DNA of 64,000 nt from an uncultured Bacteroides sp. (GCA_964555405.1 CAZKSF010000001.1:26536-90535), one strand, 5' to 3'. Positions 28,841 to 51,186 are shown, counted from the stretch's first letter. Numbers and translations are program-made. Notes: a model not told the origin generated them from the letters alone.

Positions 28841-28874
28841 TATTGTCGGGTAATGAGCATTTGGTTTAATAAAG

Positions 28875-31800
28875 TTACAGCGAGACGTTCGACGGAGTTT
28901 CTGACGGTTCTTCAGGCTTTACAGCCTCCGCGACGGTCTTTTTCCGTGGACGGAGATGGCGGAGGAAGCGGAATACATCGCGGATCGAACCGACCTTCTT
29001 TTTATACACGAATCCGACACCGGTCTGCGTCACTTCGCCTTCGAGAATACTTTCATATCCGGTGTGACGGAACAGACGTACATACATTGATCCGCTCTTG
29101 TTAATCACGTACTCAAAAGAGATATCGCTTATAAGATTCTGTGAAAAATTCTCGTCCACATTATCATCAGTGGAATAATTTCCACCTACGACAATCTTGA
29201 AACGATCATTGAACAACGATTTCGACACACTGTAACTGTAGCTGGTGGTAGTGCCTGTACTGCCGTCAGTGGTTGTTTCATACTGATTCATTCCGAACGA
29301 CAGATCCACTCCCTTGATTGTTTTTGCAGCCCACGCGTTGAGACGTCCTGTCAGGAACGAATAAAGTGGATTACCCGACAGATTGGCGCTTCCGCGCGTC
29401 TCCGGACCATTGTACACATTAGTAAGCAACAGGTTCATTGCCTCGCTTGCGCGCTGTTGTGGAGTCATCGAAGCAAGTTCGTTCTGCACCGTTATGTCAT
29501 TGTCGGTGGAGAGGTCGAACGACAGATCGAGCGCTGACAATGTTCCCCCTACTCCGAGTGTGACTGCGAAATCAACTATACGTGAATTCTGACCCGACTG
29601 CACGATGTTGGCTTTTACATTGTCCACCGCCTTGATGTTTAGCTGGGGATTCATCATGTCGCCGGTAAATGCCACATAACTCCCCTCCTGAAAAATGAAA
29701 TTCTTTTCCGAAAGCACCGGTGGAATACTGTATCGTACGTTACCTCCATTGATATTGAACCTACCGATAAGCCTGCCGTTGTTCTGAGGATTCATGTTGA
29801 ATGAAAGCAAGCCGTCGCCCTGCACCGACACACGGTTTGATCCGTCGGTGTTGAGATATACGTTCAATGTGGTACCCTTCGAAACGGTAAGTTCGGCATT
29901 CAGATTCATCATCATGCCCGGAGCAGATATGGTATCGGCATTCAGAACTTGTGTGGTATCGCTGAAATTCACGAATTTCACCATTTCCTCGTCTGACTGT
30001 GACCCCACCGCCAATCCACTGTCATCCATTATATATGTCACATTTGTTCCCTGAAGCAGGTTAAGGTCGGCATCTACGTTAAGCAACGTCATGTTTCCAT
30101 GCACATCGACATCAGCGTTGATGAATGCTTTACCGAAAGCATCGGCGCCACCGCGCGCACGGTTCGTATTCATGATCTGCATGTTCCGTGCGGTCATTTT
30201 CAGGTCTATCTGGACATCGGACAGTTTACGTGCATCTACTGTTCCGTTTACGCTCAGCGGATTATCGTTTGCGGCAGTTATCGCGAAACCGTCGAAATGC
30301 ACGATATTGCTGTCCACCGGAATCTGTCCGTCCGAGAATTTGAAAGTGGAACCAAGCATTCCCACATTGACAGCCGTTGAATCGAACTGGATGAAGCCGT
30401 TGAACACCGGCTCTATCATTGAACCCGTTATATCCATAGTACCGTTTATCATACCGCTCAGACGGGCATAATCTTTGGGCAGGAACGGATTGAGGATATG
30501 CAACGGGAAATGTATCATCGAAAAATCGAGGTCAAACGGATGAATCGCCGTTGTATCGTTCAGATGACCTCTTGCGGTTATCACCTTTACACTGTCGACC
30601 AGAAGAGAGGCATCGGCATGCAATGAGCCGTTTGCCGAATTGGTTACATCCAGCCCCACTCGGAACGATCCCACACGGTCTCTGCCGTAATACAGATCGG
30701 TCAGGCTCACCACTCCCGTACCGGTGAGTTCGTTTGAGTTCCATTTGAAACGGAGATCGGCTCCCAGGTCACCCTTGACAGGAGGAGCGAACGGTGATAC
30801 CGCCAGCCAGTCGGAAAGGTGTATATCCGAAAGCTGCATTACCACATCTTCCTGTTCGTTTCCGAGCGAATCAGCCGCTTCGTCATGCTCGGTATAAAGC
30901 CTGATGGAACTGTTTTCATTACGCATCGTCAGATCGGCGTCAATATGCCGGGTAACGAAATTATATGTCACAAAATTATCTTTATTCAGCTCCCATTTCT
31001 TATATCCGATTGTGGGAGTAAACGGCACAAAACGCACTGTTACGGCTGAATCGGCAGCTATTGCCGACAGACCGAGCAAAAATCCCTGATCCCCCTCTAT
31101 ATTCGATTGTCTCAGGAGTGCCGATACTCGGTCATCACCTAAGAATCCCGATAGGGTGACATGGGCGAAGCCGTCCATCGTACCGCGGCGGTTATTGATC
31201 TTGGCTGTATAAGCCAGATACTTGCCATGCTGGATAACGCCTACCGAAAGTGTATCGATGCGCGTACTGCCGCTGATCAAGCCGAGTATGTTGGCATTCA
31301 TGGATATCAGGGAGTCGTTGGACAATGATAGCCGCGCACTGTTCACACTCATTTTCGAATCACGGAGAAAATCCCCGGCAATATTGTTCATTCCTCCCAT
31401 TTCCGCGATTATCGCCAGCGGTGGCAAAGTCTGCTCAAGCGCTATGATATCCGCATTGCGTTGTGAGATTATAGAGTCGATCTGAACTGAGGTCGCGGTG
31501 ACGCGTGCCAGCAAGGTATCAAGTCCGCATCCTGCCGCCATACGTGCATGTAAGTCACCGTTGTTGAGTTCTCCGGTGACAGTCGAATCGGAAGTCACCA
31601 GCCGGACCCCTATTTCGGGGGTGGAAAGCACCATATCAGGCATTGCCCATTTGAGGGAAGTCACATTCAGCCCGGCATCAATATTTTTGAAGTCAGCCGA
31701 TGCCGAACCCTCCGACTTGATTCCCATCGAACCCTGCATGGCAGATTCGGTGATTTTCATCGCGCCGAGATCAATATTATGCACCATTCCGTCCAGTGAC

Positions 31801-33710
31801 CAGGTAATGCCGGAATCGGCTACCAGGGCACGGAAATCCATATCAATGTCCGCATCTCTGTTCATTGAGCGCAATGATCCCGTGGCTTGCCCCTCGTCAA
31901 GCTTCGCATTCATGGTAATGTTCCGGTATGACTGATCCATGTATACCACATCGGTTACATCGGCTACAAAATTCAGCTGTGTGCCCGACTTGAAAAAATC
32001 CAGTCCTTTACCTTCTGCCGCGAGTGATGCCGTGACATCCCCTACTCCAAGAGATGGCATAAACGAGGCTACCGGGAATTTACGCACATCCAGGTTCGCC
32101 TTATATCGTTCGCCAAGCTGTACCCAGTTCCCCTTGAAACCGATATTGCCTTTCCCTGATCTGATACCTAAAGTACCGGAAGTCATCCGGGGAGAATAGG
32201 TGATGTCACCGGTAAGGACAGTATGCGGTATATTTATTTCTTTTGCAAGACGTGCCTCGAGGAGCGTCGGCTTTATCGAGTTAAGCCCCATTGCATCGAC
32301 CTTAAGCGATATTTTTCCGTCAATACGGTCTGCGTCAAAAGGATTGCTCACCTCTCCACTCCCTTCCAACGAAAGGAACCGCGCTATTGACGCACTGAGT
32401 TCTTTCACATTGATGTGCCCGGATGTCCCGTCTAAATCGGCATGGAGTATCGCCGGCGAACGGGGAACGCCCCGGAGCATCGGCACAATCGACGGCATGG
32501 CAAGTTCGGCATCCTCCAGTCCGAGCTGACCATCGAGCTTAAGCTGTAACGGCAACGATGCGTCAGTGGTGAGATCTCCCACCCCCATAGCGGCATTCAA
32601 CGATACCGACGAATAGTCAGTAGCTATTTTGAATTGATCGGCACGCATGAGTTCATTTTCCATGCTGAACACACCGCTCGCGCTGAGCGCTATGCCACAC
32701 CTCTCGCGTCCATACAGACGTGTCAGCGGAACGGTAATCGAAGTACCGCGGTTATAGAAGGAATCAACTGAAATCTCGACATCGTTTACCTGCAGATAAT
32801 TCATGTCGATACCGGGAAGAGGCGCGGCGCCACGCATGGCATATATTGCCGAATCCGCATTGAGCCGCAAGGTGCCGGCGGTTATTGTCCACAATGACGA
32901 ACTATCAGTCGCTACAGTATCCACAGGAACTGGGCGTTGCGGATGTGAGGCAAGCCATTCCGCATCCGGGAGCAGATAAAGTACTTTTCCTAAGGCGGCA
33001 TCCAGCGACTTTACGGTTATGCTACGTGAACCCATATCGATGCGTCCGCCGTCGAGTTCCGCAGATGCCACATGGCAATCGAGAGAGTCGATCGTAGGAA
33101 GCATCTGCATGCGGTAATCCACATTTTTGAGTTCGAGTTTCCCGGCGGTTATCAGCCATGGGGTGGACGCAACCGTATCAACCGGTGTCGGGGTAATGGT
33201 ATCAAGCATTATCAGCGATACCCTTGCACCGTCCACCGTGGCATGACCTACATCTATTTTCCCTGATTTAAGCTGAAGATCGGTCTCATCGAGGTCAAAA
33301 CGGTCGATATGTGCCCGTAACCACATTGCAGAATCGGGAGTGCCTAACTGATAGAAACCATTGTCGAGTGTGACCGATTTGACATCGATGTTCAGTTTGA
33401 GCAACGCTAATGGTGAAACCGAAAGTGATGCCGAACGTGCCGTCACCATCGTGTCACCTGTCGCTTCAAGCACCACTACATCGTCGACTCCCACACGCAG
33501 CGGGAATTTGAGACTGAGTCTACCCACCTGAATATTCATACCGGTAGACGCGTTTACCTTGTCAAGGGCTATGGTTTTTACTTCATTCTGAACCCAGGGT
33601 ATATACAGAAGAGCCGGAATGATAACTATTAACGCTATCACTACCAACAGAGTCCATTTAAGAATCCTCGTTATGAGGTGGTATATTTTCTTTCCTATTG
33701 AAGTATCCAC
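28875..33710 (-). CDS. Translocation/assembly module TamB-like protein
   Basis: N-terminal membrane anchor, long beta-taco body and C-terminal DUF490-like segment (SKSLFNDRFKIVVGG...GVGFVYKKK); GTG start. Confidence 0.9.
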   Translation of the reverse strand: MDTSIGKKIYHLITRILKWTLLVVIALIVIIPALLYIPWVQNEVKTIALDKVNASTGMNIQVGRLSLKFPLRVGVDDVVVLEATGDTMVTARSASLSVSPLALLKLNIDVKSVTLDNGFYQLGTPDSAMWLRAHIDRFDLDETDLQLKSGKIDVGHATVDGARVSLIMLDTITPTPVDTVASTPWLITAGKLELKNVDYRMQMLPTIDSLDCHVASAELDGGRIDMGSRSITVKSLDAALGKVLYLLPDAEWLASHPQRPVPVDTVATDSSSLWTITAGTLRLNADSAIYAMRGAAPLPGIDMNYLQVNDVEISVDSFYNRGTSITVPLTRLYGRERCGIALSASGVFSMENELMRADQFKIATDYSSVSLNAAMGVGDLTTDASLPLQLKLDGQLGLEDAELAMPSIVPMLRGVPRSPAILHADLDGTSGHINVKELSASIARFLSLEGSGEVSNPFDADRIDGKISLKVDAMGLNSIKPTLLEARLAKEINIPHTVLTGDITYSPRMTSGTLGIRSGKGNIGFKGNWVQLGERYKANLDVRKFPVASFMPSLGVGDVTASLAAEGKGLDFFKSGTQLNFVADVTDVVYMDQSYRNITMNAKLDEGQATGSLRSMNRDADIDMDFRALVADSGITWSLDGMVHNIDLGAMKITESAMQGSMGIKSEGSASADFKNIDAGLNVTSLKWAMPDMVLSTPEIGVRLVTSDSTVTGELNNGDLHARMAAGCGLDTLLARVTATSVQIDSIISQRNADIIALEQTLPPLAIIAEMGGMNNIAGDFLRDSKMSVNSARLSLSNDSLISMNANILGLISGSTRIDTLSVGVIQHGKYLAYTAKINNRRGTMDGFAHVTLSGFLGDDRVSALLRQSNIEGDQGFLLGLSAIAADSAVTVRFVPFTPTIGYKKWELNKDNFVTYNFVTRHIDADLTMRNENSSIRLYTEHDEAADSLGNEQEDVVMQLSDIHLSDWLAVSPFAPPVKGDLGADLRFKWNSNELTGTGVVSLTDLYYGRDRVGSFRVGLDVTNSANGSLHADASLLVDSVKVITARGHLNDTTAIHPFDLDFSMIHFPLHILNPFLPKDYARLSGMINGTMDITGSMIEPVFNGFIQFDSTAVNVGMLGSTFKFSDGQIPVDSNIVHFDGFAITAANDNPLSVNGTVDARKLSDVQIDLKMTARNMQIMNTNRARGGADAFGKAFINADVDVHGNMTLLNVDADLNLLQGTNVTYIMDDSGLAVGSQSDEEMVKFVNFSDTTQVLNADTISAPGMMMNLNAELTVSKGTTLNVYLNTDGSNRVSVQGDGLLSFNMNPQNNGRLIGRFNINGGNVRYSIPPVLSEKNFIFQEGSYVAFTGDMMNPQLNIKAVDNVKANIVQSGQNSRIVDFAVTLGVGGTLSALDLSFDLSTDNDITVQNELASMTPQQRASEAMNLLLTNVYNGPETRGSANLSGNPLYSFLTGRLNAWAAKTIKGVDLSFGMNQYETTTDGSTGTTTSYSYSVSKSLFNDRFKIVVGGNYSTDDNVDENFSQNLISDISFEYVINKSGSMYVRLFRHTGYESILEGEVTQTGVGFVYKKKVGSIRDVFRFLRHLRPRKKTVAEAVKPEEPSETPSNVSL

Positions 33711-35094: not shown

Positions 35095-35120
35095 GTCATG
35101 TCCCAAAATAGCCGCCCGGC

Positions 35121-38100
35121 TTACCGGATAATCACCTTGCTCCGGCATACGATATAAATACCGGTATCGAGACCTCTCACACGACATACCTCTCCGCTCC
35201 TGACTTCAGCCATCCTTACCGGCACTCCCTTCAGATCATATACCGGAATCCGGCAACCTACCGCACTCCGTATGCACAGCTCGTTGCCTTCGGTCCATAT
35301 TTTCACACCTTGCCATGACATCAGTTCTTCTATCGAACTGTTGTCGAAAATCGGGATCATACGGCGTGAGTCATTCGACATCATGAAACATTCGAAGGGG
35401 CGCACATCGCGCAAGCCTCCTACAAACACACTTCCCGGTTCATTGCCGTCGAGTTTTTCGTCATTGATAATGCGGAATTGCTCGTCGGCTGTGCGTCCGC
35501 CGAACTCAGCAAAGAGCAGCGATCCGCTGAAGCAGGGTTTTCCTTCCGGTTCGGGCGTAGCCTCTACGGCGGCATTTGTGGCACTGAACCGCACTTCGCC
35601 AAGTATGTTGTAACTGTCGATATATTCCGGATTGTTAGGCATCGATATCAGATACGGCTCATAAGCGAGTATCTCGCCGGTCATTTCCCAGCCGGCGGCT
35701 GTCGGGCGGTATAGCCAGAACGGGCGGTCATCATCTTTCGCCGTAGCAAAGGGTCGAATTTCACTCACTGCGTCATTTATCGTTTCCACTCTGAACGGCA
35801 AAGCGATTGTCTCCCAGCCGGCGCATGTCCCGATTATAGTCGGTTTGCTGAAATGACGCGTATAGCTTATCTCACGCGCCGTGAAACTTTGTGGCGCGTG
35901 GAACGGATAGCGGTCGGTCAACCGTATGGCTGAGGCATACCCGTTCTCTATCCGGTTCATCACTCCGCACTCCCCTGTCGGATCACCGTAAGGCAGATAC
36001 ATCAGAAGGTTGGGATTAGTGGTCCCTTCGGTCAGACGCCCGTCGACACGTAGTGCTGCCGAATGCCACACTATGGCGCAGAGACCGGGATTACCGGCGA
36101 ACACACCATTGCCGTAAGCATTCATCGCTGCAGGCATATCCACCGTTACAAGTCCGGTCGAAGCAAGGGCCCCGTCCGGCATGACGGCACTCGTTACATC
36201 CGTCAGGTCAAGGTAACGCAACGCATGCAGCGAGCGTATGAACGAGTAGTCGGTTTCATCAAGCTCGCCTGCTACGGCAAGACGCAGTGTCTCGTCAGGC
36301 ATTCCTTCCGGCGCCCAGCCATAACATGAGGCGAGGATTCCGGGACGGGAAGTGACTGCATGATTCTCGTCGGCATACCCTTCGACGGAATATACAAGTG
36401 GCTCTGAATCCATATAGCCCTGCTTGACCGCTACCGCACGCACCGTCACCAGACCACCGGCATCGAACGCGCCGTCATAGATAATTCCTTCGGCGGGATT
36501 GCCGTCGCTGAAAGTATAGCGTATTTCGGCATCGGGTTCTCCGGTAGCAAGTGTGATATATCTGCCGTCATAATTGCTGACTGTCACTCCGGCACATATG
36601 AATTGTCTGATCAATATCTCCGCTGTCTCCGATTCAAGATAATCGGGCGCCTTGGCGCGGGCATACACAGTACAGTTACCTTCCACAGTTATCGGACCGG
36701 CATACGTAGCCCATTCGCCGGTAGAGTCATTGACCGCGTAACTGATCGCTGCACCCGGCGTAGCGCACCGGAGAGTAAGCAGCATCTCCTCACGATTGAA
36801 TTCACCGTATGGTTTGGCGGTGGTTTGTCCGGTCATGGCATACCACACCGTTTCCGAGTCGTACATTCCTGCCTTGCGCCCCTGAGCGTAGATTGTGAGA
36901 TTACCCTCAATAGCCACCGGACCGCTGTATTCACTCATCACCGATGTATCATCGTTACCGATCGAGTACCATATTGTGGAACCTTCGGTGACTGCGGTCA
37001 GCGTTACGATATTACCGGTAACGCTTATCAGCGGCGCGGCGACCGTGTGCTCGGCGCGGACGAAACTGTATTCGGCGATTTCCGACGGATTGAATCCCGC
37101 ACGGTAGGAACGTGCAAGTATTGTGGCGTCGCTTTCCGGAGCGACAAAAGGTGAATCGTAGAGAGTCGACGACTCCGACGGTTCACTTCCGTCAAGAGTG
37201 TAGTAGGTAGAGGTTCCTTCCATCTGCTCGGATTGTATCTCTATCATCAGATCGCGGAAACCGATCGAAGGTGCCGACACCTGATTTCCCATGTCTGTGA
37301 GATAGAAAGTGAATTGTCCGGGAGAATCCGGGGCGGCATCGCGTAGTATTCCGTAATAAACTCCGGCAGGGAGATCGGGACAGATCATGGCGTTGAGGCT
37401 TTCTCCGGAGACAGTCGCTTCGAGAACCCCGTCGCGCCATAAATCGAGCGTAACAGGTATATCGGTACGGAGATAAAGAGGTGTGCTGTCGGCAGTGAAC
37501 CGTATGGCTGCAAATTCACCCTGCCCCGGAGTGGAGAACTGATGAATCGAGTTAACCTTCATGTCGGTCACTACGGCACTATAACTTCCCTTTATCTCTA
37601 ATTTCCACATTTCGGGAGGTGCCCAGCCGAGTTCGGTACGCAATTGCATAATGTAACGCGCGGAATCGCTCGATTCTACCGTGATCCGGTCATCCTCGAA
37701 GCGTGGCTGCTGACCCGCGATATGGAACTGAAGCGAGTCAGGCAAATCGACGGTGAAGGTATAACTGTCGGAAAGTGTCCGCTCCACTTCCACAAAACCG
37801 AGATCGATGCCGTTGATATAGTGGCGGTAACCGGTTACGGGCGCACGCATACTGTCGCTGTAGAATACAATCAGTTTTCGGTAAACGGAACTCCAGTCGC
37901 CGTCATCATCGCGGAGACGCAGGTTGAAGTAGTGGGCTCCGCAGCTCTTGTCAAAGTCCGACAGGTCGACTTCAAAGCTGGCCGGATTTCCATCTGCCGT
38001 CGATGACACGCGGTTGAGGTAGTCGTTGTCAAACCAATATTCATATTCCGTAAAGCGTGAAGCATTGGATTCTATGAAGAAATACTTCATAAAGGGAGCG

Positions 38101-38936
38101 CCCCACACTCCTTCACAGGTCTGAATGCGGTAGCTGATTCTGTGCAGACCCTTGCGTATACCGGTTAGGTCAACTTCATATGTGTTTGCTTCGGAAGAGA
38201 GTTCTCCCGAGAATCTTTCATTATAATTGTCATCAATCCAGTATTCGTAGGCTACCGCGTCATCCGATCCTACGAGATTCACTATCATTTTCCGATAGAC
38301 ACTGCCCCGGCTACCGTCGATATACCCGAGACGGCAGTTAAAATAGTGAACCCCGGCGGGCAAAGAGGAAATATCAAGTTCAAGGTGATTGCTTCCGAAC
38401 GGTATATCACCCGACACTTTCGAAGCATAGTCATTGTCAAACCAATACTCATAGGATATGGCACTGTTATCCTGTCCTATTGATTGAAACATCTTTCGGT
38501 AGACGGGTCCCCACACACCATTGCCATATCCGACACGGCAATTGAAGAAATGGATTCCTTTAGGAAGTGAGGATAAATCAAGTTCCAGATATCGTTTTCC
38601 CGATGATATATCACCGGAAATCTTCGAGTCAATATCATTGTCAAACCAATACTCATAGGATACGGCACTGTTATCACTGCCGAAGGAATGAAACATACGG
38701 CGGTAGACGGAGCCATATATGCTGTCACCTTTCGCGAGGCGGATATTGAAGTAATGGATGCCTTTGGGTAGGTCGGAGGTATCGATCAGAAGGTCGAATG
38801 ACTTGCCGGACACAGTACCGGTTTGCACAGACGAAGCATCATTGTCGAACCACCACTCATAACTGTCGGGCGTGACAGCCTGTATAATGCCGGCAGTAAG
38901 GAGTAACGCTGTGATTATTGAGTAAAGTTTTCCCAT
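35121..38936 (-). CDS. Large T9SS-type cell-surface scaffold: five 68-aa YEYWFD repeats, four CHB_HEX_C/Fn3-associated domains, short LRR-like segment, CTD
   Basis: Signal peptide; YExWxD repeats at aa 26, 94, 162, 230 and 298; TYYTLDGSEP-type stalk repeats; CTD with YDLKG...GIYIV...KVIIR. Confidence 0.85.
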   Translation of the reverse strand: MGKLYSIITALLLTAGIIQAVTPDSYEWWFDNDASSVQTGTVSGKSFDLLIDTSDLPKGIHYFNIRLAKGDSIYGSVYRRMFHSFGSDNSAVSYEYWFDNDIDSKISGDISSGKRYLELDLSSLPKGIHFFNCRVGYGNGVWGPVYRKMFQSIGQDNSAISYEYWFDNDYASKVSGDIPFGSNHLELDISSLPAGVHYFNCRLGYIDGSRGSVYRKMIVNLVGSDDAVAYEYWIDDNYNERFSGELSSEANTYEVDLTGIRKGLHRISYRIQTCEGVWGAPFMKYFFIESNASRFTEYEYWFDNDYLNRVSSTADGNPASFEVDLSDFDKSCGAHYFNLRLRDDDGDWSSVYRKLIVFYSDSMRAPVTGYRHYINGIDLGFVEVERTLSDSYTFTVDLPDSLQFHIAGQQPRFEDDRITVESSDSARYIMQLRTELGWAPPEMWKLEIKGSYSAVVTDMKVNSIHQFSTPGQGEFAAIRFTADSTPLYLRTDIPVTLDLWRDGVLEATVSGESLNAMICPDLPAGVYYGILRDAAPDSPGQFTFYLTDMGNQVSAPSIGFRDLMIEIQSEQMEGTSTYYTLDGSEPSESSTLYDSPFVAPESDATILARSYRAGFNPSEIAEYSFVRAEHTVAAPLISVTGNIVTLTAVTEGSTIWYSIGNDDTSVMSEYSGPVAIEGNLTIYAQGRKAGMYDSETVWYAMTGQTTAKPYGEFNREEMLLTLRCATPGAAISYAVNDSTGEWATYAGPITVEGNCTVYARAKAPDYLESETAEILIRQFICAGVTVSNYDGRYITLATGEPDAEIRYTFSDGNPAEGIIYDGAFDAGGLVTVRAVAVKQGYMDSEPLVYSVEGYADENHAVTSRPGILASCYGWAPEGMPDETLRLAVAGELDETDYSFIRSLHALRYLDLTDVTSAVMPDGALASTGLVTVDMPAAMNAYGNGVFAGNPGLCAIVWHSAALRVDGRLTEGTTNPNLLMYLPYGDPTGECGVMNRIENGYASAIRLTDRYPFHAPQSFTAREISYTRHFSKPTIIGTCAGWETIALPFRVETINDAVSEIRPFATAKDDDRPFWLYRPTAAGWEMTGEILAYEPYLISMPNNPEYIDSYNILGEVRFSATNAAVEATPEPEGKPCFSGSLLFAEFGGRTADEQFRIINDEKLDGNEPGSVFVGGLRDVRPFECFMMSNDSRRMIPIFDNSSIEELMSWQGVKIWTEGNELCIRSAVGCRIPVYDLKGVPVRMAEVRSGEVCRVRGLDTGIYIVCRSKVIIR
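37850..38864 (-). repeat. Five tandem 204-bp (68-aa) intragenic repeats
   Basis: The first Tyr codons fall at 38861, 38657, 38453, 38249 and 38045; a 41-bp block at 38431-38471 and 38635-38675 is 40/41 identical. Confidence 0.9.
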
Positions 38937-38953
38937 CTACGTATGGTTGGGAA

Positions 38954-39919
38954 TCAGTCAGCCTTGACTGTAATATTGACCCTCAGTTTGTTGGTGGCAG
39001 CATCGTATTCCACTGAACTCTTGGCTGTGTCGACTGTGGGAACCGATGGATTTTCGGAGAAGGGAGAATCTCCGCCGTCAATCCCTACCACAGTACCGTC
39101 TTGTCCCAGATAACCTAATTCAGTCAAATCCAATGGGCAATTCATCTCACTATCCAAAAGTTCTTCTGTGTCCTCCGTATAGTAATAGCAGTTATGCTGA
39201 TAAATCGAAGTACAAGTTGGCGTTTCATTCAAGACGGAGTTAATAAAAGAAGATGTAATAGCACCACTATTAGTTAAATTAGCGTCCTTATTTTGTAAAA
39301 TACACGAGATTACTGTCGATGGACAATACTGACTGTTTAGTTTTATATTACAATTAATCATTGTGGTAGAGTGTGCGTAGCCTACTAACGTCAACTTTGA
39401 GTTTTTTATAAACACACTTCTATCATAACTTCCTTCAAAATCAGCTCTTTCTATGATACATTTATCATAGGTCACCTCTTGTCCTGCGTAACCACCAGCA
39501 ACAAGATCTCTTATCCAGCATCTTCTGATTTCAGATCTATATAAATTCCCTAAGGAATTAAGCTCCTCATAAAAAAAGAGTCTATCCAATCTTACACCAT
39601 CAAATAACGGCGCTTCCATATAGGAATTAGGATTAGATGACATATCGAAAGTAATATTGCCTAATATATGAGAGCCATATCCGTTACCTATAATACTCAG
39701 ACGTTTACGAATGGTATATGATCCTCCCCTAATAACGAAGTCGCCTTCCGACAGATAAATGGTATCGCCATTGACTGCGGCGTCAACAGCGCTTTCAAAT
39801 GCCGCGAGATTGGTGAAGAATGAGAGTTCGCCGTTATGAGACAGTGTCACCATAGGATTCTGTGCTAATGCTGCTACAAAAGTGCCTATAACTACGATCA
39901 TTGAAAAGATTCGCTTCAT
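38954..39919 (-). CDS. Secreted beta-helix-like hypothetical protein, co-transcribed with the scaffold
   Basis: Signal peptide ending ALA-Q; AVDAAVNGDTIYLSEG start, Asn/Cys/Ile-ladder core and YLGQDGTVVGIDGG motif; ends in two short beta-strands with no T9SS CTD; 17-bp gap to the scaffold gene. Confidence 0.75.
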   Translation of the reverse strand: MKRIFSMIVVIGTFVAALAQNPMVTLSHNGELSFFTNLAAFESAVDAAVNGDTIYLSEGDFVIRGGSYTIRKRLSIIGNGYGSHILGNITFDMSSNPNSYMEAPLFDGVRLDRLFFYEELNSLGNLYRSEIRRCWIRDLVAGGYAGQEVTYDKCIIERADFEGSYDRSVFIKNSKLTLVGYAHSTTMINCNIKLNSQYCPSTVISCILQNKDANLTNSGAITSSFINSVLNETPTCTSIYQHNCYYYTEDTEELLDSEMNCPLDLTELGYLGQDGTVVGIDGGDSPFSENPSVPTVDTAKSSVEYDAATNKLRVNITVKAD

Positions 39920-40011: not shown

Positions 40012-40060
40012 ATAAAAAAACGAGAGCGTGTCATACCTGAGTATTATGACACACTCTCGT
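40012..40060 (-). terminator. Terminator of the susCD operon
   Basis: acgagagcgtgtcata / tatgacacactctcgt stem with an A-run at 40013-40020 (U-tail on minus strand); abuts repeat copy 2. Confidence 0.8.
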
Positions 40061-40088
40061 CGGAGTTGGGATTATTGGTGTTTATTTA

Positions 40089-43000
40089 TTACTTTGGAGG
40101 GAAAAGAAGCATAAGCGACGGAACAGAAGAAGCTGTGTAACTGCCTATTACAGCTCCTTCGGGAGTCTGGTTCCAAGATTCTCCATCGCAAATGTTACGC
40201 GAAGGATCGCGGCGCGCCCACCCTTCAATTATATTATTCTCGATGAACGGACGGAACTGTTCCTGACCGCACTCATCAACCAAAAGCTTCATATACTGCA
40301 CCCAGATTGCAGGATAGATCCCTTGTTCAAGACCACCCTGATCCATAAGATTACGGCGGTTGTGCGCCCACGGAAGCAGACCATGATCACGTGACATCAC
40401 ATCTATGCTGTACTCGGCAGCCTTGACCGCATTATCAAGATAGCGCTGCTCACCGGTGGCGAGATACAGCAATGCCGAAGCTCCGATATAGGTGCCCTGA
40501 TTGTAGATGAGTGAGCCGCCACGGCGCTCATGACCTGCAAAATGGTCGACCACCTGACCGGTAGCGGTATCGACAAGACTGTCGACACTCCAGTCATATA
40601 TCTCGCGTGCCATCTCCATGTAGCGGTCGCGCGTCTCATAGGCAGGGCGGGTGAAATCGCCGTAACCGTTACTCCATGTTTCGGGCTTCTTGTCAGCCTT
40701 TCGTTTGGCGGGAACGGAATTGTGAAGCAGGACTGCCGCAACGACGGTCGGGAAATTTATACACGACATTTTTCCATCGGTGGCGTTCGGATATTTGGGA
40801 TCACGTAACGGTTGCCACTGCCAGAACATTCCGCCTCCGAGACCCTTTGCCGGATCGGCATAACTGCCGGCGTCACCTACTTCGGGCGACCCGTACCACA
40901 CACGGGCAAAACTCTGCTCGGCAAGACGGCGGTAAGCCTCATTTCCGGTCTGCAGATAGGCTCGCGCCATAGTGATGGTCCACCATTGGATATCATCGTA
41001 GATAAACCATCCTAATGTCTCGTCGGCATTGTCAAAATCAAAATTGAGGTAGTGCCGGATATTACCTTCGAGTATACGGTCAGCAAGATCGGCATAACGT
41101 GCTTCCCGGTCCTTGTCACCGGTCTTAGCTGCAAGAGCCGCAGCATTAAGCGCCATATCGGCAAACATCGGCTGGCACCAGATTGCAGCGGCGCCGTTGA
41201 AACGGTCTGTCGCCTTTGGATCAGCCGAGGTATTGCGGTAGATCATCTTATCGGTGTCGAGATAAACATTGTTGAATGAATCATATGCTTCCCATACATC
41301 ATCAAGAGTGTAAGCGGCAGGAAGCGCAGCAGCCGGATCCCATGAGAATGACACATGAACACCATAGGGATTATTCTCGAAGCGTACGCGGTAAGTTGAA
41401 CTTACCTCGTCCCAGTCGGCATCATCAAACACCTCTTCACCGTCGATCGTCACACTTGCGGGACGGACAGGAAGATAAACGCGTGCGACAGCCGAGGTCT
41501 CCACCGGACCCTTGGCGAGATAACTGAAATGCCCCGGAGCCGCTTTCTCATTGTATTCACGCGAAGCTGAAGCGAGCACCCGTGGAACGGTACGGTCGGT
41601 CATGCGCTGCGGATGCACGAGCAGCGCGTGATGTCCGGGGGCGACGCTGTAAGTGGAATGTACGGTAAGTTCCGGATCGTAAAGATCGATCACGGGTCCG
41701 GTAACAATTACCGGCTCATCACTGACACTTTCGTCAACCACGCCTATTACCTCATACACTCCGCGGTCAAGACGGAAATTGTTCTTGACTTCAAGTTCTC
41801 CGGCACGGGCTCTCTGCTCGTAAAGGCGTTTTACCTCATTGAAAAGCTGCTCGTCGCCTCCTTGGCTGAGGATATATTCCTTTGGGTCATGACGCATGAC
41901 AGTCACGGTACCTCTGCCTGCGCGGTGTTCACCTTCGGCAGGATGACGTCCGAGACCGAGTGTCTCGAAAAGGTGTTCGGATGGGGCTGCATAATCGTTA
42001 TCGCCGGTATTCCACCATTCGCTGACACTCTGGAAAGGATCGGCATCCGTTCCGGTAAACAGCAGGTGACCGCCGGACTCCACCCATGCGGCAAGCTGAC
42101 GATGTGCGATGCTGTCAAGAGGTTTCATATTGGAATAAGTCATCAACAGCACTTTGATATCGGCGAGAGCCGGTCCGTAACCTAAATTCTCGATATGCAC
42201 GGTCTGCACCGGGATTCCGCGCTTTATCATGGGGAGAGCCATTCCGTAAAAATTGGCAAGCTGCGGATCATCGTAACCTTCATGCTGTGGAAAGCGCTGG
42301 AACATCAGGGAGTTCCCCATAAGCACACCGATACCCTGCGATCCGCTGACCCGATTGCCGGAACGCGGCATCTTGTTAAGCGCGTTTACCATCACCTGCA
42401 TCTGAGTGGAGTAGAAGCGGGGTATGCGTCCACGCTCCTCACTGTCGGCACTCATGCGGTAGAGTCCCTCGTAGATACGCTCCGGCCAGGGCATTACCTC
42501 AAAATCGGATATACCCGGATAGAGCAGCTGGGCGGTGAAGGTTGCCTGATAATTTCTCCGGTAGTCCTCCCAGTCCTTTGCGCGGTCCTCGATGGGATCG
42601 GTGAGGAAAAACATCTTACGTCCGGTCGGGGCGGTCATGGCTTCCATTGATCCGTATTCGAGATATGCGGTCTCGAACACACGCTCGCGCTGCTTACCGT
42701 CGTAGAAATTAGGTTCGCGGGATGTACCCGTCCATACCTGGGCGATATATCCGTCGCACGACGGAAGCGAAGCGAGACTTGCCTCCGGACTTACAATCTG
42801 CCATTGGGAATAATTGACCAGAGAGTGAGTGGGCACATAGCATTTGACATCCATACCTTTGGACTTGCCATATTCCTTGGCGAAGGTGAAGATTTCGTCG
42901 AGCGCACGGTAATAGAGATGATATTTGAGTTTGTTGGAGAGATAAGTTGCTTCCGGCGACTCGTCCTGCGGACGCCAGTCGGTGCCGTAATACTCTTTCC

Positions 43001-43505
43001 ACTCGCGCTTGAATGCATCGCTGTATCCGCTCCGTGCCCAGAACTCCGGTTCCTCCATGAAAATGGCGTCGATTCCGGCATCTATGACACGCTTTATGTG
43101 TCGTCCCTTGAGATATTCGAGAAAGTTTTTCGACGGAACGATGTAAGGCACCAGATGTCCGTGCCATATCGTGTCGCCGCGCTGATTCACCTGTCCCTCG
43201 TCCAGGTGCCACTTTCCGTCCCAACCGCCGGTGAAATAGTCCTGATACTCACCCCATGCTATACCGGTCATGAAATGTACGGTATATCCATGATCGCGCC
43301 ACGAACTGACACGCTCCTCGAACGAATTGCTCCGGTGGCGGTCGGAAGGATTTCCTCCCACACCGTACACCATAACGGCATCGGCGCGGTTATCGATAGT
43401 CGGTCGCCACTCGCGCGATGTCTGGAAAGTAGTCTTGACATCGGTCTGCGCCAGCAATGCAGCGGGCATAATTACCGAAGCGAATAAAGTTATTATCTTA
43501 CTCAT
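40089..43505 (-). CDS. Fusion of an unclassified GH-like N-terminal module (~720 aa) and a C-terminal GH76 (~415 aa)
   Basis: SPI-type signal peptide; GH76 catalytic YDDIQWW and YNQG motifs; the N-module has a GH42-trimerisation-like segment (KVLLMTYSNMKP...WVESGGHLLFTG). Junction near 41340. Confidence 0.8.
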   Translation of the reverse strand: MSKIITLFASVIMPAALLAQTDVKTTFQTSREWRPTIDNRADAVMVYGVGGNPSDRHRSNSFEERVSSWRDHGYTVHFMTGIAWGEYQDYFTGGWDGKWHLDEGQVNQRGDTIWHGHLVPYIVPSKNFLEYLKGRHIKRVIDAGIDAIFMEEPEFWARSGYSDAFKREWKEYYGTDWRPQDESPEATYLSNKLKYHLYYRALDEIFTFAKEYGKSKGMDVKCYVPTHSLVNYSQWQIVSPEASLASLPSCDGYIAQVWTGTSREPNFYDGKQRERVFETAYLEYGSMEAMTAPTGRKMFFLTDPIEDRAKDWEDYRRNYQATFTAQLLYPGISDFEVMPWPERIYEGLYRMSADSEERGRIPRFYSTQMQVMVNALNKMPRSGNRVSGSQGIGVLMGNSLMFQRFPQHEGYDDPQLANFYGMALPMIKRGIPVQTVHIENLGYGPALADIKVLLMTYSNMKPLDSIAHRQLAAWVESGGHLLFTGTDADPFQSVSEWWNTGDNDYAAPSEHLFETLGLGRHPAEGEHRAGRGTVTVMRHDPKEYILSQGGDEQLFNEVKRLYEQRARAGELEVKNNFRLDRGVYEVIGVVDESVSDEPVIVTGPVIDLYDPELTVHSTYSVAPGHHALLVHPQRMTDRTVPRVLASASREYNEKAAPGHFSYLAKGPVETSAVARVYLPVRPASVTIDGEEVFDDADWDEVSSTYRVRFENNPYGVHVSFSWDPAAALPAAYTLDDVWEAYDSFNNVYLDTDKMIYRNTSADPKATDRFNGAAAIWCQPMFADMALNAAALAAKTGDKDREARYADLADRILEGNIRHYLNFDFDNADETLGWFIYDDIQWWTITMARAYLQTGNEAYRRLAEQSFARVWYGSPEVGDAGSYADPAKGLGGGMFWQWQPLRDPKYPNATDGKMSCINFPTVVAAVLLHNSVPAKRKADKKPETWSNGYGDFTRPAYETRDRYMEMAREIYDWSVDSLVDTATGQVVDHFAGHERRGGSLIYNQGTYIGASALLYLATGEQRYLDNAVKAAEYSIDVMSRDHGLLPWAHNRRNLMDQGGLEQGIYPAIWVQYMKLLVDECGQEQFRPFIENNIIEGWARRDPSRNICDGESWNQTPEGAVIGSYTASSVPSLMLLFPPK

Positions 43506-43587: not shown

Positions 43588-44400
43588 TCAGGGCACGAGA
43601 ATCTGCATGGGCTCGCTATAGTTATAGCGGCGTACTTCAGCCGTGGAGTAATTGATACGGGCGGCAGCGCGGATATAGACACGCTGACCCGAGGGTATCT
43701 CTCCGTTTGAAGTAATAGTGATCTCCTTGCCGAAATAGTCATCGAAATCACATCCCTGGAATGTCGCGGAAGCTGACCAGCGCTCGTCGCGCGCACGATA
43801 ACCTACCGATGACGAGTAGCTTACGAACAATTGTACGTCAGTTACGTTAAGCAGGTCGTCGGAGTAATCGGAACGGGTCGGCTCGATCTTGTCGCGGAAA
43901 TCGGATTTCGCAACAGCACGCTCTACAACGATTTTGGCTTTTACCTGACCGTTGCTCACCTGCGGTTCGCCAACGATGCGGACTTTAAGGAACGGCTGTA
44001 CCTCGAATTTCACCTTGGCAGTACCCTTGATATATATTTCCTGACCTTCGTCGGCAAGCAGGACACCGTCGGGAGTCTCGCGTACGATAGGGATGAACGG
44101 TCCGTCGACACGCACATAATAGTGACCGCCGAATACCTTGGTGTTCTGGAATGTGCCGTCCGGCATTGCGTAAAAGTCGGGGTTATGATCGGCGTTCTCG
44201 CCCCAGCTCAGTTCTGTCATGCGCACACGGATTCCTTCGCTACCCTGATCGGTAAGGACGCGTTCGCCTGTGGCGACATCCACCACCTCGCCCCAGATGG
44301 TCTCTTCAGGCTCGTCGTAATTGTCGATCTCAAAGAGACTGCAGGAACTCATCGACATCATCAGTGCAGCAAGTGTGCCGAATATTTGAAGTTTTTTCAT
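43588..44400 (-). CDS. DUF3823 lipoprotein (surface glycan-binding candidate)
   Basis: Lipobox MSSC; IDNYDEP...GEVVD..TGE and DGTFQNTKVF..GPF motifs; directly after susD. Confidence 0.85.
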   Translation of the reverse strand: MKKLQIFGTLAALMMSMSSCSLFEIDNYDEPEETIWGEVVDVATGERVLTDQGSEGIRVRMTELSWGENADHNPDFYAMPDGTFQNTKVFGGHYYVRVDGPFIPIVRETPDGVLLADEGQEIYIKGTAKVKFEVQPFLKVRIVGEPQVSNGQVKAKIVVERAVAKSDFRDKIEPTRSDYSDDLLNVTDVQLFVSYSSSVGYRARDERWSASATFQGCDFDDYFGKEITITSNGEIPSGQRVYIRAAARINYSTAEVRRYNYSEPMQILVP

Positions 44401-44430
44401 TGCGATTGGTTTTCGTAAGAGAGTTATTTA

Positions 44431-46497
44431 TTAACGGTTAGGCTGCTGATCGATTACAGAGCTCTTGTTCACCTCACCGCCGGGGATTGAGAAGTAGTAG
44501 TCAACCGGGCTGTAGCTGAGCTGCTTCGATGCCATATTCTGGAAATGGGTGTCGAAGAAATATTTGTTGTTGGCTACGCAATAGAACGGATACAGACCAC
44601 GGAAACGGTAATTGTTGCTGTTGCTGAATGAATCCTTGTCGCGGACCTCGCCCCAGAAACCGTCACGACCTTCGTAGTGCTGTACACGCCAGCGACGGAT
44701 ATCCCATTTTGCCTGATGTTCGAAAGCAAGCTCCTTGCGGCGTTCGCGGCGGACTATGTTACGGCTCTCTACCGATCCGGAGAGTGTTCCGGTAAGCTGG
44801 TCGGCACCGGCACGCTCACGGATATCCTTTATAGCCTGGGTGGCGACTGCAAGCATATCGGTACCGTCGGGCGACTGAACGCCGGCGATCGCAAGTTCTA
44901 CGGCTGCCTCAGCCGCGTCAAGAAGCACTTCGGCATAACGCATCAGTATGTAGGGCTGATCGCTCACACCCTCACGACCTCCGATGAAATCGGGATCAAG
45001 CCATTTACGGGTAACAAGACCTGTGACACCTGACTCACCGTATGAGCGGTAAGGTCCGCATGGACCGGTTGCAGGCTTTTCGTTGCCGAATATATCGGTG
45101 ACATATTTCAGCTCGGTAGGACTTGCGCTCATTACAAGCTGATCAGCCTTGGCACATGAAGTGAACTCCTGAGTGGCGTTACCATAGGTATAATCGTTGA
45201 AAAGCGATGTCACGGGGAGGGAACCGGTATACGAACCGGCATACGAGTCAATTGTACCGCCGGCGAATTTGTCACCGGGGAATATTACCTGTGCGCGGAG
45301 ACGAGGCTCGGCATTGGCGAAGAAATCGTAAAGATTGTCGAACATCAGGTACTCGCCTTCGGTAATCTTATCGCCGGTAGTCACCTTAAGGGTGCCGTCG
45401 GGATAACGGTCAAATCCGTCGAAAAGCTCTACAAAATCAGCTGTCGGGCAAGTACCGCAGCTAAGCGGTGAGTGATAGGGGTAGCTTGTGCCCGGAAGAT
45501 ACGGACCGTTGTAGCCGTCGTAGCTGTGAGTGGAAGTGGGATACATGTATTCCTTTACCCACAGATGCTCGGTACTGTTGACATCAAATGTCATGTCGAC
45601 GAGGTTCTCATACTGTGCGTTGCGGTCGTTCGCAGCCCACTTTGATTTGTGAAGCGAGTAAACATTATCGGAAATGATTTCTGAAGCTGCTTTGTAGGCT
45701 TCAGCGAAATAGCGTTTTGATGCTGCTTCCCAGCTGTCGGGCGCGAAACCCATGACACGTACGTTTGTCTTGGAACCGAAACCGGTGAGGTTGCCGTCGA
45801 CAGTCTGATTGTATTTGGCGACAGATCCGGCATAGAGCATGGCACTCGACTTATAGGCAAGAGCTATGTAACGGTTGACATAACCGCGCTTGATGCTCTG
45901 AGGCATCAGAAGTTCGGCTGCTGTGGTGTAATCCTCCAGGATCTGATCCCATGTTTCTTCCTCGGATGAACGGGGAACTTCCAGATTATCCTGATCCTCG
46001 GGATAATTGATCACGCGGGTTACCAAAGGTATACCACCGTAACGCATCGCCATCTGAGTGAACATGAAGGCACGGATGAAGTATGCCTGTCCGAGATAGT
46101 TATTATAGGCGAGTTCGGTGAAATTGCCGCGATAGGCGGGCAGATTTTCGATAAGGAAGTTAGCCTTACGCAATTCACGGAAAGCATCTCTCCAGCAATC
46201 ACCGGCTTTTTCCTCACCGGTGAATGCGGTAACGATACCGTCACGACCTACAGCTTCGCCTGTTCCTTCAACACCCTTGCTGACAAGCCAGCCGTTGAAG
46301 TTGGGACCGCGCTGCGGCAGATATTTCAGGTCCTCGATGGGGAGGTTACTGTAAAGCTCGGCGAGATACAGTTCCATTCCACCCTCGTTGCTGAGAAGGT
46401 CATCGGCTGTCATCATGTTTTTGGGCGAGATGTCAAGGTCGACACACGAGGTGAGAAGACTCAGGCCCATGATGGTTGATATGATGATTTTTTTCAT
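44431..46497 (-). CDS. susD: SusD/RagB family lipoprotein
   Basis: Lipobox LTSC; GQAYFIRAF, YGGIPLV, MRYAEVLL and ERRKELAFE...WDIRRW. Confidence 0.95.
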   Translation of the reverse strand: MKKIIISTIMGLSLLTSCVDLDISPKNMMTADDLLSNEGGMELYLAELYSNLPIEDLKYLPQRGPNFNGWLVSKGVEGTGEAVGRDGIVTAFTGEEKAGDCWRDAFRELRKANFLIENLPAYRGNFTELAYNNYLGQAYFIRAFMFTQMAMRYGGIPLVTRVINYPEDQDNLEVPRSSEEETWDQILEDYTTAAELLMPQSIKRGYVNRYIALAYKSSAMLYAGSVAKYNQTVDGNLTGFGSKTNVRVMGFAPDSWEAASKRYFAEAYKAASEIISDNVYSLHKSKWAANDRNAQYENLVDMTFDVNSTEHLWVKEYMYPTSTHSYDGYNGPYLPGTSYPYHSPLSCGTCPTADFVELFDGFDRYPDGTLKVTTGDKITEGEYLMFDNLYDFFANAEPRLRAQVIFPGDKFAGGTIDSYAGSYTGSLPVTSLFNDYTYGNATQEFTSCAKADQLVMSASPTELKYVTDIFGNEKPATGPCGPYRSYGESGVTGLVTRKWLDPDFIGGREGVSDQPYILMRYAEVLLDAAEAAVELAIAGVQSPDGTDMLAVATQAIKDIRERAGADQLTGTLSGSVESRNIVRRERRKELAFEHQAKWDIRRWRVQHYEGRDGFWGEVRDKDSFSNSNNYRFRGLYPFYCVANNKYFFDTHFQNMASKQLSYSPVDYYFSIPGGEVNKSSVIDQQPNR

Positions 46498-46518
46498 TGC
46501 ATTTACAAAATTAGTGAT

Positions 46519-49680: not shown

Positions 49681-49703
49681 ATGTTTGATTGATTGATTAT
49701 TTT

Positions 49704-51158: not shown

Positions 51159-51186
51159 CGTTTGTCAGTGCTTATGGTTACTTATA

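Follow-up and report, generated by a model that had tools for sequence, protein, structure and literature searches.

Two adjacent genes on the minus strand of a stretch of Bacteroides DNA raise the question whether their products work together and, if so, by which parts. The window, i.e., the whole stretch of DNA that was analysed, comprises 64,000 nt; Table 1 lists the features of the two genes, called A and B in the following. [quoted passage not shown]

Table 1. Features of the gene pair; positions are counted within the window and aa numbers within the respective protein.
Feature	Position	Strand	Basis
Terminator-like hairpin at A stop codon (stem 35128..35115, T-rich tail)	35105..35128	(-)	scan
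Gene A, putative surface protein, 1271 aa	35121..38936	(-)	ORF
A C-terminal ~72 aa, T9SS type-A-CTD-like	35124..35339	(-)	hhalign; motif common to orthologues
A stalk, 3-4 CHB_HEX_C_1 / Fn3_assoc modules, aa ~565-860	36357..37244	(-)	Pfam, E 8.7e-27 and 1.1e-26
A degenerate sixth unit and next beta-domain, aa ~369-455, GYRHYINGIDLG...	37572..37832	(-)	in-register alignment with homologues' sixth unit
A unit 5, aa 297-368, KSCG insertion	37833..38048	(-)	motif period and AF2
A unit 4, aa 229-296, YEYWID...GLHRISYR type	38049..38252	(-)	motif period and AF2
A unit 3, aa 161-228	38253..38456	(-)	motif period and AF2
A unit 2, aa 93-160	38457..38660	(-)	motif period and AF2
A unit 1, aa 25-92, YEWWFD type	38661..38864	(-)	motif period and AF2
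A signal peptide, aa 1-20	38877..38936	(-)	read from sequence by eye
Gene B, predicted secreted right-handed beta-helix protein, 321 aa	38954..39919	(-)	ORF
B C-terminal tail, aa 285-321, SPFSENPSVPTVDTAKSSVEYDAATNKLRVNITVKAD, predicted two-stranded amphipathic beta-hairpin	38957..39067	(-)	AF2, family alignment
B signal peptide, aa 1-19, MKRIFSMIVVIGTFVAALA followed by Q	39863..39919	(-)	read from sequence by eye
Terminator-like hairpin and T-run between GH76-like gene and B, GACGAGAGTGTGTCATA...TATGACACGCTCTCGTTTTTTT	40014..40061	(-)	read from sequence

B is located upstream of A with an intergenic gap of 17 nt, and reading the sequence of this gap revealed no terminator-like site. Terminator-like hairpins are present upstream of B and at the stop codon of A; the former is missing from the list of the terminator scan, which did report the latter. 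Given this layout, co-transcription of B and A is plausible.

The pairing recurs far beyond this locus. B is directly upstream of an array gene in 18/18 genome loci. Of 69 metagenome loci, 61 have the start of the array at a distance below 400 nt behind B, and in 5 more it is located deeper in the next ORF (i.e., 61-66/69); no array was detected downstream of B in 3/69. The assumption that arrays are widespread without B, and hence self-sufficient, was dropped, since each distant array protein that was looked up has a diverged B upstream (8/8; Prevotella, Thalassobellus and metagenome contigs). The pairing thus spans Muribaculaceae to Prevotella and Flavobacteriaceae, such that the proposed co-occurrence across Bacteroidetes is strongly supported. 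Within the pairs examined, B-A gaps range from 2 to 17 nt with strict gene order, and the pair sits in unrelated genomic contexts elsewhere. Between 1 and 3 B copies are found per array, where tandem B paralogues (2-3) are 35-45% identical with near-identical tails. Overall, the A/B pairs amount to about 80 non-redundant cases with strong clade structure. The locus is one case of a two-gene cassette conserved across Bacteroidota; a description of such a beta-helix/repeat-array pair was not found in the literature.

From N- to C-terminus, A consists of the array, a CHB_HEX_C/Fn3_assoc stalk, another region and a CTD-like end. The array had been described as five exact 68-aa repeats. Here, the period is indeed exact, with the [YW]E[YW]W[FI]D motif at aa 26, 94, 162, 230 and 298, but the five units share only 19-59% pairwise identity and are followed by a degenerate sixth unit at ~aa 369, for which AF2 predicts beta-strands (pLDDT 72-92). 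When orthologues are compared, the units are position-specific and therefore not interchangeable copies. Homologous arrays comprise 3-8 units of 65-78 aa each, and almost all of the 120 homologues have the array start at ~aa 23-26; in about 7% of the loci the array is internal, i.e., it follows unrelated or helical sequence.

Modelled without a partner, the A array is predicted confidently (AF2; pLDDT 85.6, units 80-95) with five strands per unit, where strand 3 (E-equivalent) of units 1 and 5 is short or unassigned. Foldseek matches the array model to tandem FnIII/Ig strings (E down to 2e-7). In a direct coupling analysis (DCA) of the units, E3-R42 and D7-H37 are strongly coupled, next to a ladder between strands 4 and 5 and an F6-L29 contact that closes the core with strand 3, involving a conserved turn at Y10. 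Units of 75 aa in other lineages contain loop or linker insertions only and no added strand. None of the A units exceeds the threshold of a curated Pfam model (best: TcfC E-set, E 0.009), while relatives of the units match Y_Y_Y (P0140, E 1e-11; the threshold is passed by P0140 and P0154), TcfC E-set, Big_13 and GbpA_D3 over strands E-F-G. Weak Pfam matches of the relatives cover the C-terminal (E-F-G) halves of Ig-like models that are 90-117 aa long. PDB sequence and profile searches with the array returned no informative solved relative, only marginal E-F motif matches.

For B, the N-terminal region including the AQ site is conserved in the family alignment, and the protein has neither a T9SS CTD nor a lipobox. 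AF2 models B alone as a compact protein (pLDDT 94.3, pTM 0.91) with regular short strands arranged in coils, which identifies it, at the level of the model, as a right-handed parallel beta-helix. DCA based on 364 B sequences recovers the respective stacking pairs (spacing 19-30). Foldseek reports weak beta-helix matches to PL6 lyases, pectin methylesterases and tailspikes (probability up to 0.97; best E 0.02, TM at most 0.43). In a PDB profile search, the N-terminal cap gives a match to PL6 lyases (E 4e-5). PDB sequence and profile searches with B otherwise gave no informative solved relative, Pfam and NCBIfam gave no family match, and no catalytic motif was recognised.

These matches bear on the possibility that A and B are functionally linked without forming a stable complex, e.g., that B is a glycan-binding or -cleaving protein which acts on the ligand of an adhesin A and is co-regulated with it. 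B has its beta-helix fold in common with polysaccharide lyases, esterases and tailspikes, the PL6-like cap points in the same direction, and the pair adjoins an alpha-mannan-type PUL with SusC/D and GH76. The Foldseek matches are weak, however, and come without a catalytic motif; the pair is parted from the PUL by a terminator-like hairpin and occurs elsewhere in unrelated contexts. Furthermore, it is the array that stays constant with B, whereas the rest of A-type proteins varies (PKD, MBG, LRR, dockerin-like), which points to the array itself as the partner of B. We consider a link without a complex unlikely. With regard to these variable parts, A itself shows no BspA-type LRR_5 match (PF13306) at E up to 0.1, and LRR_5 is precomputed for some array relatives (P0123, P0129, P0132).

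The B family has >350 members with lengths of 301-367 aa. Its most conserved part is the tail, where pairwise identity reaches 70% as compared to 38% in the body; conservation also extends to the N-terminal 45 aa. B ends with ...PSVPTVDTAKSSVEYDAATNKLRVNITVKAD at 39049-38957, as originally read, and the tail is C-terminal in 118/120 B homologues, the other 2 being fragments. Searched against 1.84e9 representatives, the tail profile finds B-family proteins only. Proteins matched in multiple stretches by the tail profile were discarded, as they are YadA-like or SBBP-like repeat proteins with no relation to B. The two tail strands are predicted at mature residues 283-287 and 292-296 (AF2, pLDDT ~90).

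Among the top-70 DCA couplings of B with a separation above 150, 9/10 join the last ~45 columns, i.e., the tail plus the preceding conserved GxDGTxVG stretch, to the N-terminal columns 23-116. V310 on the hydrophobic face of the hairpin, i.e., the face that fold completion would require to enter the core of a unit, is among the residues coupled to the N-terminal strand and first coil. Based on pLDDT, DSSP and these couplings, the tail hairpin is predicted to pack on B's own N-terminal cap. Such couplings between both ends could in principle also stem from B-B contacts or from both ends co-evolving with a common partner. With pLDDT ~90 in a model of pTM 0.91 and 9/10 couplings directed to the N-terminus, the tail does not appear as a free terminal extension.

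How do these results relate to the proposed completion of A's units by B's tail? Several observations agree with it: the units have only five predicted strands, with strand 3 short or unassigned in two of them; their relatives match only the E-F-G halves of longer Ig-like models; the tail is an amphipathic, highly conserved hairpin at the extreme C-terminus; several B paralogues may precede one array; and the B-array synteny is near-universal. Moreover, B ends 2-5 residues past its last strand and mature A begins 4-6 residues before its first strand, such that a B-A junction would be a loop of normal length. On the other hand, the array is predicted confidently without any partner, which contradicts, in silico, the idea that the repeats do not fold alone. 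The claim that a repeat covers strands C to G only thus holds in so far as the units are five-stranded and shorter than seven-strand Ig/FnIII domains, but they are predicted with confidence on their own, their couplings describe a closed core to which strand 3 and the conserved turn at Y10 contribute, and the 75-aa units of other lineages add no strand. Likewise, the tail of B is predicted as a two-stranded hairpin, but it is confidently placed within a compact B model, and according to DCA the region around V310 faces the N-terminal strand and the first coil of B itself.

Natural fusions of B and the array, which the original prediction had brought up, are absent as well: the tail profile search gave none, the tail HMM has no match among 120 array proteins, and no ORF holding both B and array domains was found. 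The position-specific subtypes of the units and the arrays located internally behind helical or unrelated domains also argue against completion in trans. Given these results, the split-Ig mode of A-B binding is not supported, and we consider the full proposal very unlikely, i.e., the least probable of the readings weighed here. Two related ideas were rejected. First, a unit could be a PKD domain lacking strands A-B, as prompted by the similarity of YEYWFD to WDFGDG and the weak E-F matches; hhalign of the unit, the tail and the combined tail+unit profile (with reversed/shuffled controls) gave no significant match to the PKD profile, which also speaks against the split-Ig proposal. Second, the C-terminus of B and the N-terminus of mature A could form a 1:1 split domain, where the loop length fits but internal arrays and DCA weaken the idea.

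The export of A bears on how B might reach the surface. The stalk domains of A are verified as CHB_HEX_C_1/Fn3_assoc (3-4 modules, E ~1e-26, Pfam). The assignment of a T9SS-type CTD is less clear. Profile-profile comparison of 9 A-type C-termini with 10 PF18962-positive CTDs shows a likeness (hhalign; probability 77%, E 2e-5) that covers only 40 columns, but A gives no Pfam/NCBIfam match to the curated CTD models (Por_Secre_tail PF18962 / TIGR04183), also when the last 72 aa are searched by themselves at E up to 10, and NCBIfam reports a weak T9SS_DNase_Rie match (aa 1228-1264, E 0.072). Support for a T9SS CTD in A is thus weaker than originally claimed. By eye, the C-terminus of A resembles that of P0139, which is PF18962-positive (precomputed). 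No T9SS component was recognised among the ORFs scanned in the window; T9SS cargo has been predicted in Muribaculaceae (preprint, PMC13404670).

If A is T9SS cargo, B might also be a periplasmic helper, i.e., a chaperone, holdase or targeting factor that acts on the array before export and is not displayed itself. A Sec signal without CTD or lipobox, strict gene order and tight coupling with gaps of 2-17 nt would suit such a role. There is also a precedent for dedicated partner genes beside T9SS cargo: type B CTD cargo is accompanied by neighbouring PorP/SprF-like partner genes, i.e., cargo and dedicated neighbour are conserved as a pair as observed here. The PorP/SprF-like partner is an outer-membrane beta-barrel, whereas B is a soluble beta-helix encoded upstream of its cargo, and the CTD-like end of A resembles type A. 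Against a helper role, a rigid beta-helix of 300 aa with a fast-diverging body would be an unusual chaperone, the array is predicted to fold autonomously, and 2-3 diverged paralogues per cargo are more in line with heads that vary and are displayed than with a housekeeping function. We regard a helper role as improbable, below the functional link without a complex and above the split-Ig proposal.

The reading we prefer, with a probability of roughly 45%, is a scaffold-docking cassette: B proteins dock on the array via a conserved terminal module and are displayed on a T9SS-anchored stalk. From the observed synteny, copy-number and conservation patterns together with the predicted folds and intramolecular couplings, we infer that A and B probably bind each other; likewise, the binding face, the stoichiometry and B's way to the surface are what we infer in the following. 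A would be exported by its Sec signal and T9SS-type C-terminal domain, and its mature N-terminus would present 3-8 five-stranded Ig-like modules. Since A would be anchored by its C-terminus, the array would point away from the cell. The individual modules would fold by themselves as 'atrophied' Ig/Y_Y_Y-like units, in which a network of conserved E-R-W and D-H residues spans strands 1, 4 and 5. B, a right-handed beta-helix of 300-350 aa, would be exported by Sec and lack a CTD; its C-terminal segment would return along the helix to the N-terminal cap, so that the terminal hairpin packs there. In consequence, both conserved ends of B would be joined in a single terminal module, with diversification confined to the helix body. 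The array would then serve as a binding platform, with variable beta-helix 'heads' shown at the tip of the T9SS-anchored stalk.

The conservation of the B tail and its place at the extreme C-terminus support, at the level of sequence, such scaffolding and docking, and the 1-3 B paralogues with the same tail before one array would fit a multivalent scaffold. For B, no pathway through the outer membrane is known, such that its surface display would need a putative co-export step or release. In a more specific form, the array would be a multivalent receptor whose units capture the terminal hairpin module of B, by edge-strand augmentation or fold completion; a single T9SS-anchored stalk would then bear several different beta-helix heads and pass with them, folded and assembled, through the T9SS translocon. 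We know of no earlier case of such piggy-back T9SS export, and this form is a long shot, placed between the helper role and the functional link without a complex. If true, Bacteroidota would possess their own counterpart to cohesin-dockerin display.

The scaffold-docking reading can be compared with known systems. Like the cohesin-dockerin scaffoldins of cellulosomes, the cassette combines tandem small beta-sandwich modules on a surface-anchored protein with partners whose bodies diverge but which share a short, conserved tag at one terminus, including several paralogous partners per scaffold. This likeness is formal only, i.e., it concerns the arrays of 3-8 units and the 1-3 B paralogues with near-identical tails; neither A nor B has a cohesin or dockerin Pfam match. 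The A units are five-stranded with ~68 aa, whereas cohesins are nine-stranded jelly rolls, and the B tag is a hairpin predicted to lie on its own cap, whereas a dockerin is a Ca-binding EF-hand pair. Furthermore, the A/B setting is a Gram-negative T9SS, and A/B binding is our interpretation. Some distant array proteins carry Dockerin_1 at their own C-terminus, which is a different arrangement.

Donor-strand complementation, as in chaperone-usher pili and type V pili (FimA/Mfa1), is similar in idea, since a terminal strand completes the Ig-like fold of another protein; type V pili of Bacteroidota use C-terminal strands (PMC4789730). In contrast to such systems, the A units are predicted to be closed and the B hairpin to be engaged within B. 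Type V pilins are also proteolytically activated lipoprotein precursors; the signal of B, by contrast, is of the signal-peptidase-I type. The Rib domain and 'periscope' proteins of Gram-positives provide a precedent for stable atrophied Ig repeats, i.e., for tandem repeats of Ig origin which remain stable despite the loss of strands and build up rods (PMC6936399, PMC8201768). Their short tandem units resemble the A array, but there is no sequence kinship, their repeats are near-identical copies, and the A array is distal and N-terminal, has position-specific units and is tied to a partner gene. Finally, Y_Y_Y (PF07495) and the E-set families are matched by unit relatives in their strand E-F-G part, with A's own units below the curated thresholds.

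The cassette has a constant part, i.e., the array and both ends of B, and variable parts, i.e., the body of B and the stalk or payload of A. Such a layout would be expected if the cassette were a modular system for display or adhesion that is subject to diversifying selection. What defines a T9SS substrate is its C-terminal domain. Here, B lacks a CTD and is genetically tied to the distal part of surface proteins of the T9SS type, in Bacteroidota from gut, rumen and marine habitats. The pair thus points either to an undescribed route of surface placement, by docking and perhaps co-export, or to a specialised maturation factor. Several hundred 'hypothetical' proteins thereby gain a testable role, and the two-gene system offers a simple means to ask whether the T9SS moves complexes.

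The 321-aa beta-helix protein (B) and the 1271-aa surface-type protein (A), which carries an N-terminal array of ~68-aa Ig-like units, are encoded by a phylum-wide gene pair. That is, an array gene directly follows a B homologue on the same strand in 18/18 genome loci. When metagenomes were scanned with the broad B alignment, 69 loci had enough downstream sequence. Here, the array starts <400 nt after B in 61/69 and deeper in the next ORF in 5/69, while none was detected downstream of B in 3/69. For 8/8 distant array proteins looked up (Prevotella, the flavobacterium Thalassobellus suaedae, metagenome contigs), a gene of ~305-351 aa ends 2-14 nt upstream. Each encodes a diverged B, with the N-terminus common to the family (..ALH..G..T.F....A..A..GDT.YL..G.F) and an end of the same kind (G.DGT.VG.YGG..P[FY]....P..P.[VI]......L.[VI]...V...stop). 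The co-occurrence envisaged in the original prediction is thus confirmed in genomes, metagenomes and distant look-ups. Natural fusions of B and array in one protein, also considered there, were seen neither among the array proteins and the broad B family nor in the tail-profile search and the loci ORFs. We found no description of the pair in the searchable literature.

Some loci carry two or three tandem B paralogues ahead of one array gene (see table). These are 35-45% identical overall with almost identical tails (last 37 residues of B). In L067, an additional B copy follows the array gene.

In the window, a gap of 17 nt separates A from B, both on the same strand. Between B and the upstream GH76-like gene lies a long hairpin with a T-run after it; a terminator-like hairpin overlaps the A stop codon, and a scan of the sequence found none between B and A, which makes a two-gene transcript plausible. 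The neighbourhood is ordinary, i.e., a SusC/SusD/GH76 polysaccharide utilisation locus (PUL) upstream as well as aminotransferase, TamB and Omp85-type genes downstream. The upstream locus looks like an alpha-mannan-type PUL. It encodes two GH76-family proteins of 1138 aa (unassigned over a large N-terminal stretch) and 484 aa, a CarboxypepD_reg-domain protein and a 270-aa protein without any Pfam match. The TamB and Omp85/POTRA genes form a TAM-type outer-membrane assembly pair. G+C differs along the pair (see table) and is 37.6% in the B body vs. a window average of 48.9%. Judged from composition, B and the array may form one cassette that gets exchanged or replaced, or may be differently selected.

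Features of the A/B pair, its surroundings and related loci (nt positions in the window, or in the respective locus for L-numbers)
Feature	Position	Strand	Remark
ORF A	35121..38936	(-)	1271 aa
Rest of A	35121-37832	(-)	G+C 53.7%
Array of A	37833-38876	(-)	G+C 47.5%
ORF B	38954..39919	(-)	321 aa; G+C 39.6%
SusC/SusD locus	40089-43505, 43588-52983	(-)	upstream of B
TamB (1611 aa, PF04357 E 1e-41) + Omp85/POTRA protein (774 aa)	26516-33710	(-)	directly downstream of aminotransferase gene
Unit strand 1			xxSYEYWF, then short helical turn (predicted model)
Unit strand 2			4 residues (predicted model)
Unit strand 3			short; unassigned in units 1 and 5 (predicted model)
Unit strands 4 and 5			long (predicted model)
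Tandem B copies, L015	8876-10966
Tandem B copies, L063
Tandem B copies, L067	2398-4499 and 6703-7761
Tandem B copies, L094	604-2982
Tandem B copies, L104	1-2508
Tandem B copies, L105	1-2488
Tandem B copies, L106	406-2498
Non-N-terminal array, L064	1400-4330
Non-N-terminal array, L067	4487-6556
Non-N-terminal array, L069	2027-4072
Non-N-terminal array, L094	2934-4745
Non-N-terminal array, L099	1537-5001

Within A, the motif [YW]E[YW]W[FI]D recurs at aa 26, 94, 162, 230 and 298. The repeats, originally described as exact, are so in spacing (period exactly 68 aa) but not in sequence, where the five units share only 19-59% mutual identity. A sixth, degenerate unit at ~aa 369 is in register with the homologues' sixth unit. 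Across orthologues, the unit subtype goes with the array position (unit 1 YEWWFD..VSS.Q.G; unit 4 YEYWIDDNY..GLHRFNYR; unit 5 with FDKSGG). The array is constant across lineages and nearly always starts right after the signal peptide; in ~7% of loci it is internal, behind helical or unrelated sequence. Internal arrays are preceded by 165-820 aa of other sequence, which in L064 leads into the first unit through a long helical linker, and an ORF with an L064-type N-terminus (L084, 1684-2856) lies on a contig that ends before any array.

The non-array part differs widely by lineage (PKD, MBG, LRR_5, CHB_HEX_C, dockerin-like). In A, Pfam identifies 3-4 CHB_HEX_C_1/Fn3_assoc modules at aa ~565-860, which bears out the predicted stalk domains. 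Between stalk and C-terminal domain (CTD), aa 880-1190 (window ~35367-36299) are without Pfam match; by eye, they contain BspA/LRR_5-like repeats (LRYLDLTDV...), and PF13306 is present in several relatives from the array search. The last 72 aa resemble a T9SS type A CTD. For this part of the original prediction, profile-profile comparison with bona fide CTDs gives a probability of 77% (E 2e-5), but curated CTD models do not recognise these residues.

Next, we consider whether each unit is a half-Ig to which the B tail donates strands A-B in trans. In favour of this, the units are truly short, with five predicted strands each in the array model (A aa 21-470; 114-sequence alignment; AF2), and matches of unit relatives to longer Ig-like models in Pfam are confined to the E-F-G halves. 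On the other hand, the array alone reaches a mean pLDDT of 85.6 (pTM 0.53), although such AF2 monomer confidence is compatible with partner-induced rearrangement. At E values as low as 2e-7, Foldseek relates the array to strings of FnIII/Ig domains (e.g., GhpA, adhesin extender regions, cytokine receptors). In the unit coupling analysis (758 units, Meff 530), E3-R42 and D7-H37 are very strong across strands 1 and 4. It also gives F6-L29 (strand 1 to strand 3), Y4/W5-Y10 (conserved turn), a ladder between strands 4 and 5 and an R42/K44-W50 cluster. These couplings describe a putatively closed small fold with its core covered by the turn and strand 3, and count against fold completion. Likewise, what sets apart the 75-aa units of other lineages is only an insertion of 3 residues in a loop plus longer linkers, without additional strand, and unit, tail or tail+unit profiles show no significant similarity to the PKD profile. 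Stably folded 'atrophied' Ig repeats have a precedent in the Rib domain (PMC6936399).

A conserved E-R-W plus D-H network spans strands 1, 4 and 5 of every unit (consensus positions 3, 5, 7, 37, 42, 50; in unit 2 A aa 95, 97, 99, 129, 134, 142). Its coupling scores are 6.4-6.5 vs. 2.5 for the next pair. The network might serve as a structural clasp or as a surface that binds a ligand or partner.

For B, neither Pfam nor NCBIfam provides a match. Its family comprises proteins of ~310-340 aa in Muribaculaceae; taken broadly, it numbers at least 353 proteins, 301-367 aa long. The tail is its best-conserved part (70% pairwise identity vs. 38% for the body); the N-terminal 45 aa are conserved too. 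Against 1.84 billion representative proteins, the tail profile finds the B family only, always at the extreme C-terminus, its few other matches being unrelated repeat proteins. Mature B is modelled (109-sequence alignment; AF2) as a right-handed beta-helix (pLDDT 94.3, pTM 0.91). The last coil is followed by ~60 irregular but confidently predicted residues and a terminal hairpin whose strands span mature residues 283-287 and 292-296 (pLDDT ~90). Structural neighbours (Foldseek) are generic beta-helices only (best E 0.02), and PDB searches found no solved relative. The homologues P0079 and P0080 (450-454 aa) carry an N-terminal extension of ~130 aa (DYYLTGEFNGW...) which, judged by eye, is reminiscent of a carbohydrate-binding or amylase-N-type module. 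Some B heads may thus have a role related to glycans.

The tail forms an amphipathic hairpin, 118/118 full-length B homologues stop within few residues of the last strand, B itself runs on for 2-5 residues past that strand, and mature A starts 4-6 residues before its first strand, all of which would suit strand donation. Direct-coupling analysis of B (364 sequences, Meff 263) suggests otherwise. It recovers the expected coil-stacking pairs (19-30 apart), and among its 70 strongest couplings, 10 are separated by >150. Nine of these 10 run from the last 45 columns to columns 23-116 in the N-terminal part (chance ~6e-5), e.g., V310-T27, V310-T55, S309-E33, T305-N81 and T316-H86. The hairpin thus appears to pack on B's own N-terminal cap, which would explain why both ends are conserved together; in principle, the couplings might instead be intermolecular. 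V310, on the hydrophobic face that fold completion would need for the unit core, is among the residues coupled to the cap. Together with the putatively closed unit core and the internal arrays, this leaves fold completion by the tail unsupported, and we consider it quite improbable.

Synteny, copy-number and conservation patterns point to a physical partnership of A and B as scaffold and docking protein, to which we assign a probability of about 0.45. A looser functional link without stable complex appears unlikely, and a role of B as periplasmic helper somewhat more so. The pair is alike in form to cohesin-dockerin display but shares neither fold nor family with it. Type V pili of the same phylum use donor-strand complementation; one defining feature of that mechanism, a free donor strand, is not seen in the model and couplings of B. 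The pair is best described as a surface protein of T9SS type that bears an Ig-like array, together with a dedicated partner. Within such a partnership, receptor (the array) and ligand (the ends of B, joined together) would both stay constant, and variation would lie in the B body and in the A payload; B, which has no CTD, might be co-exported through the T9SS.
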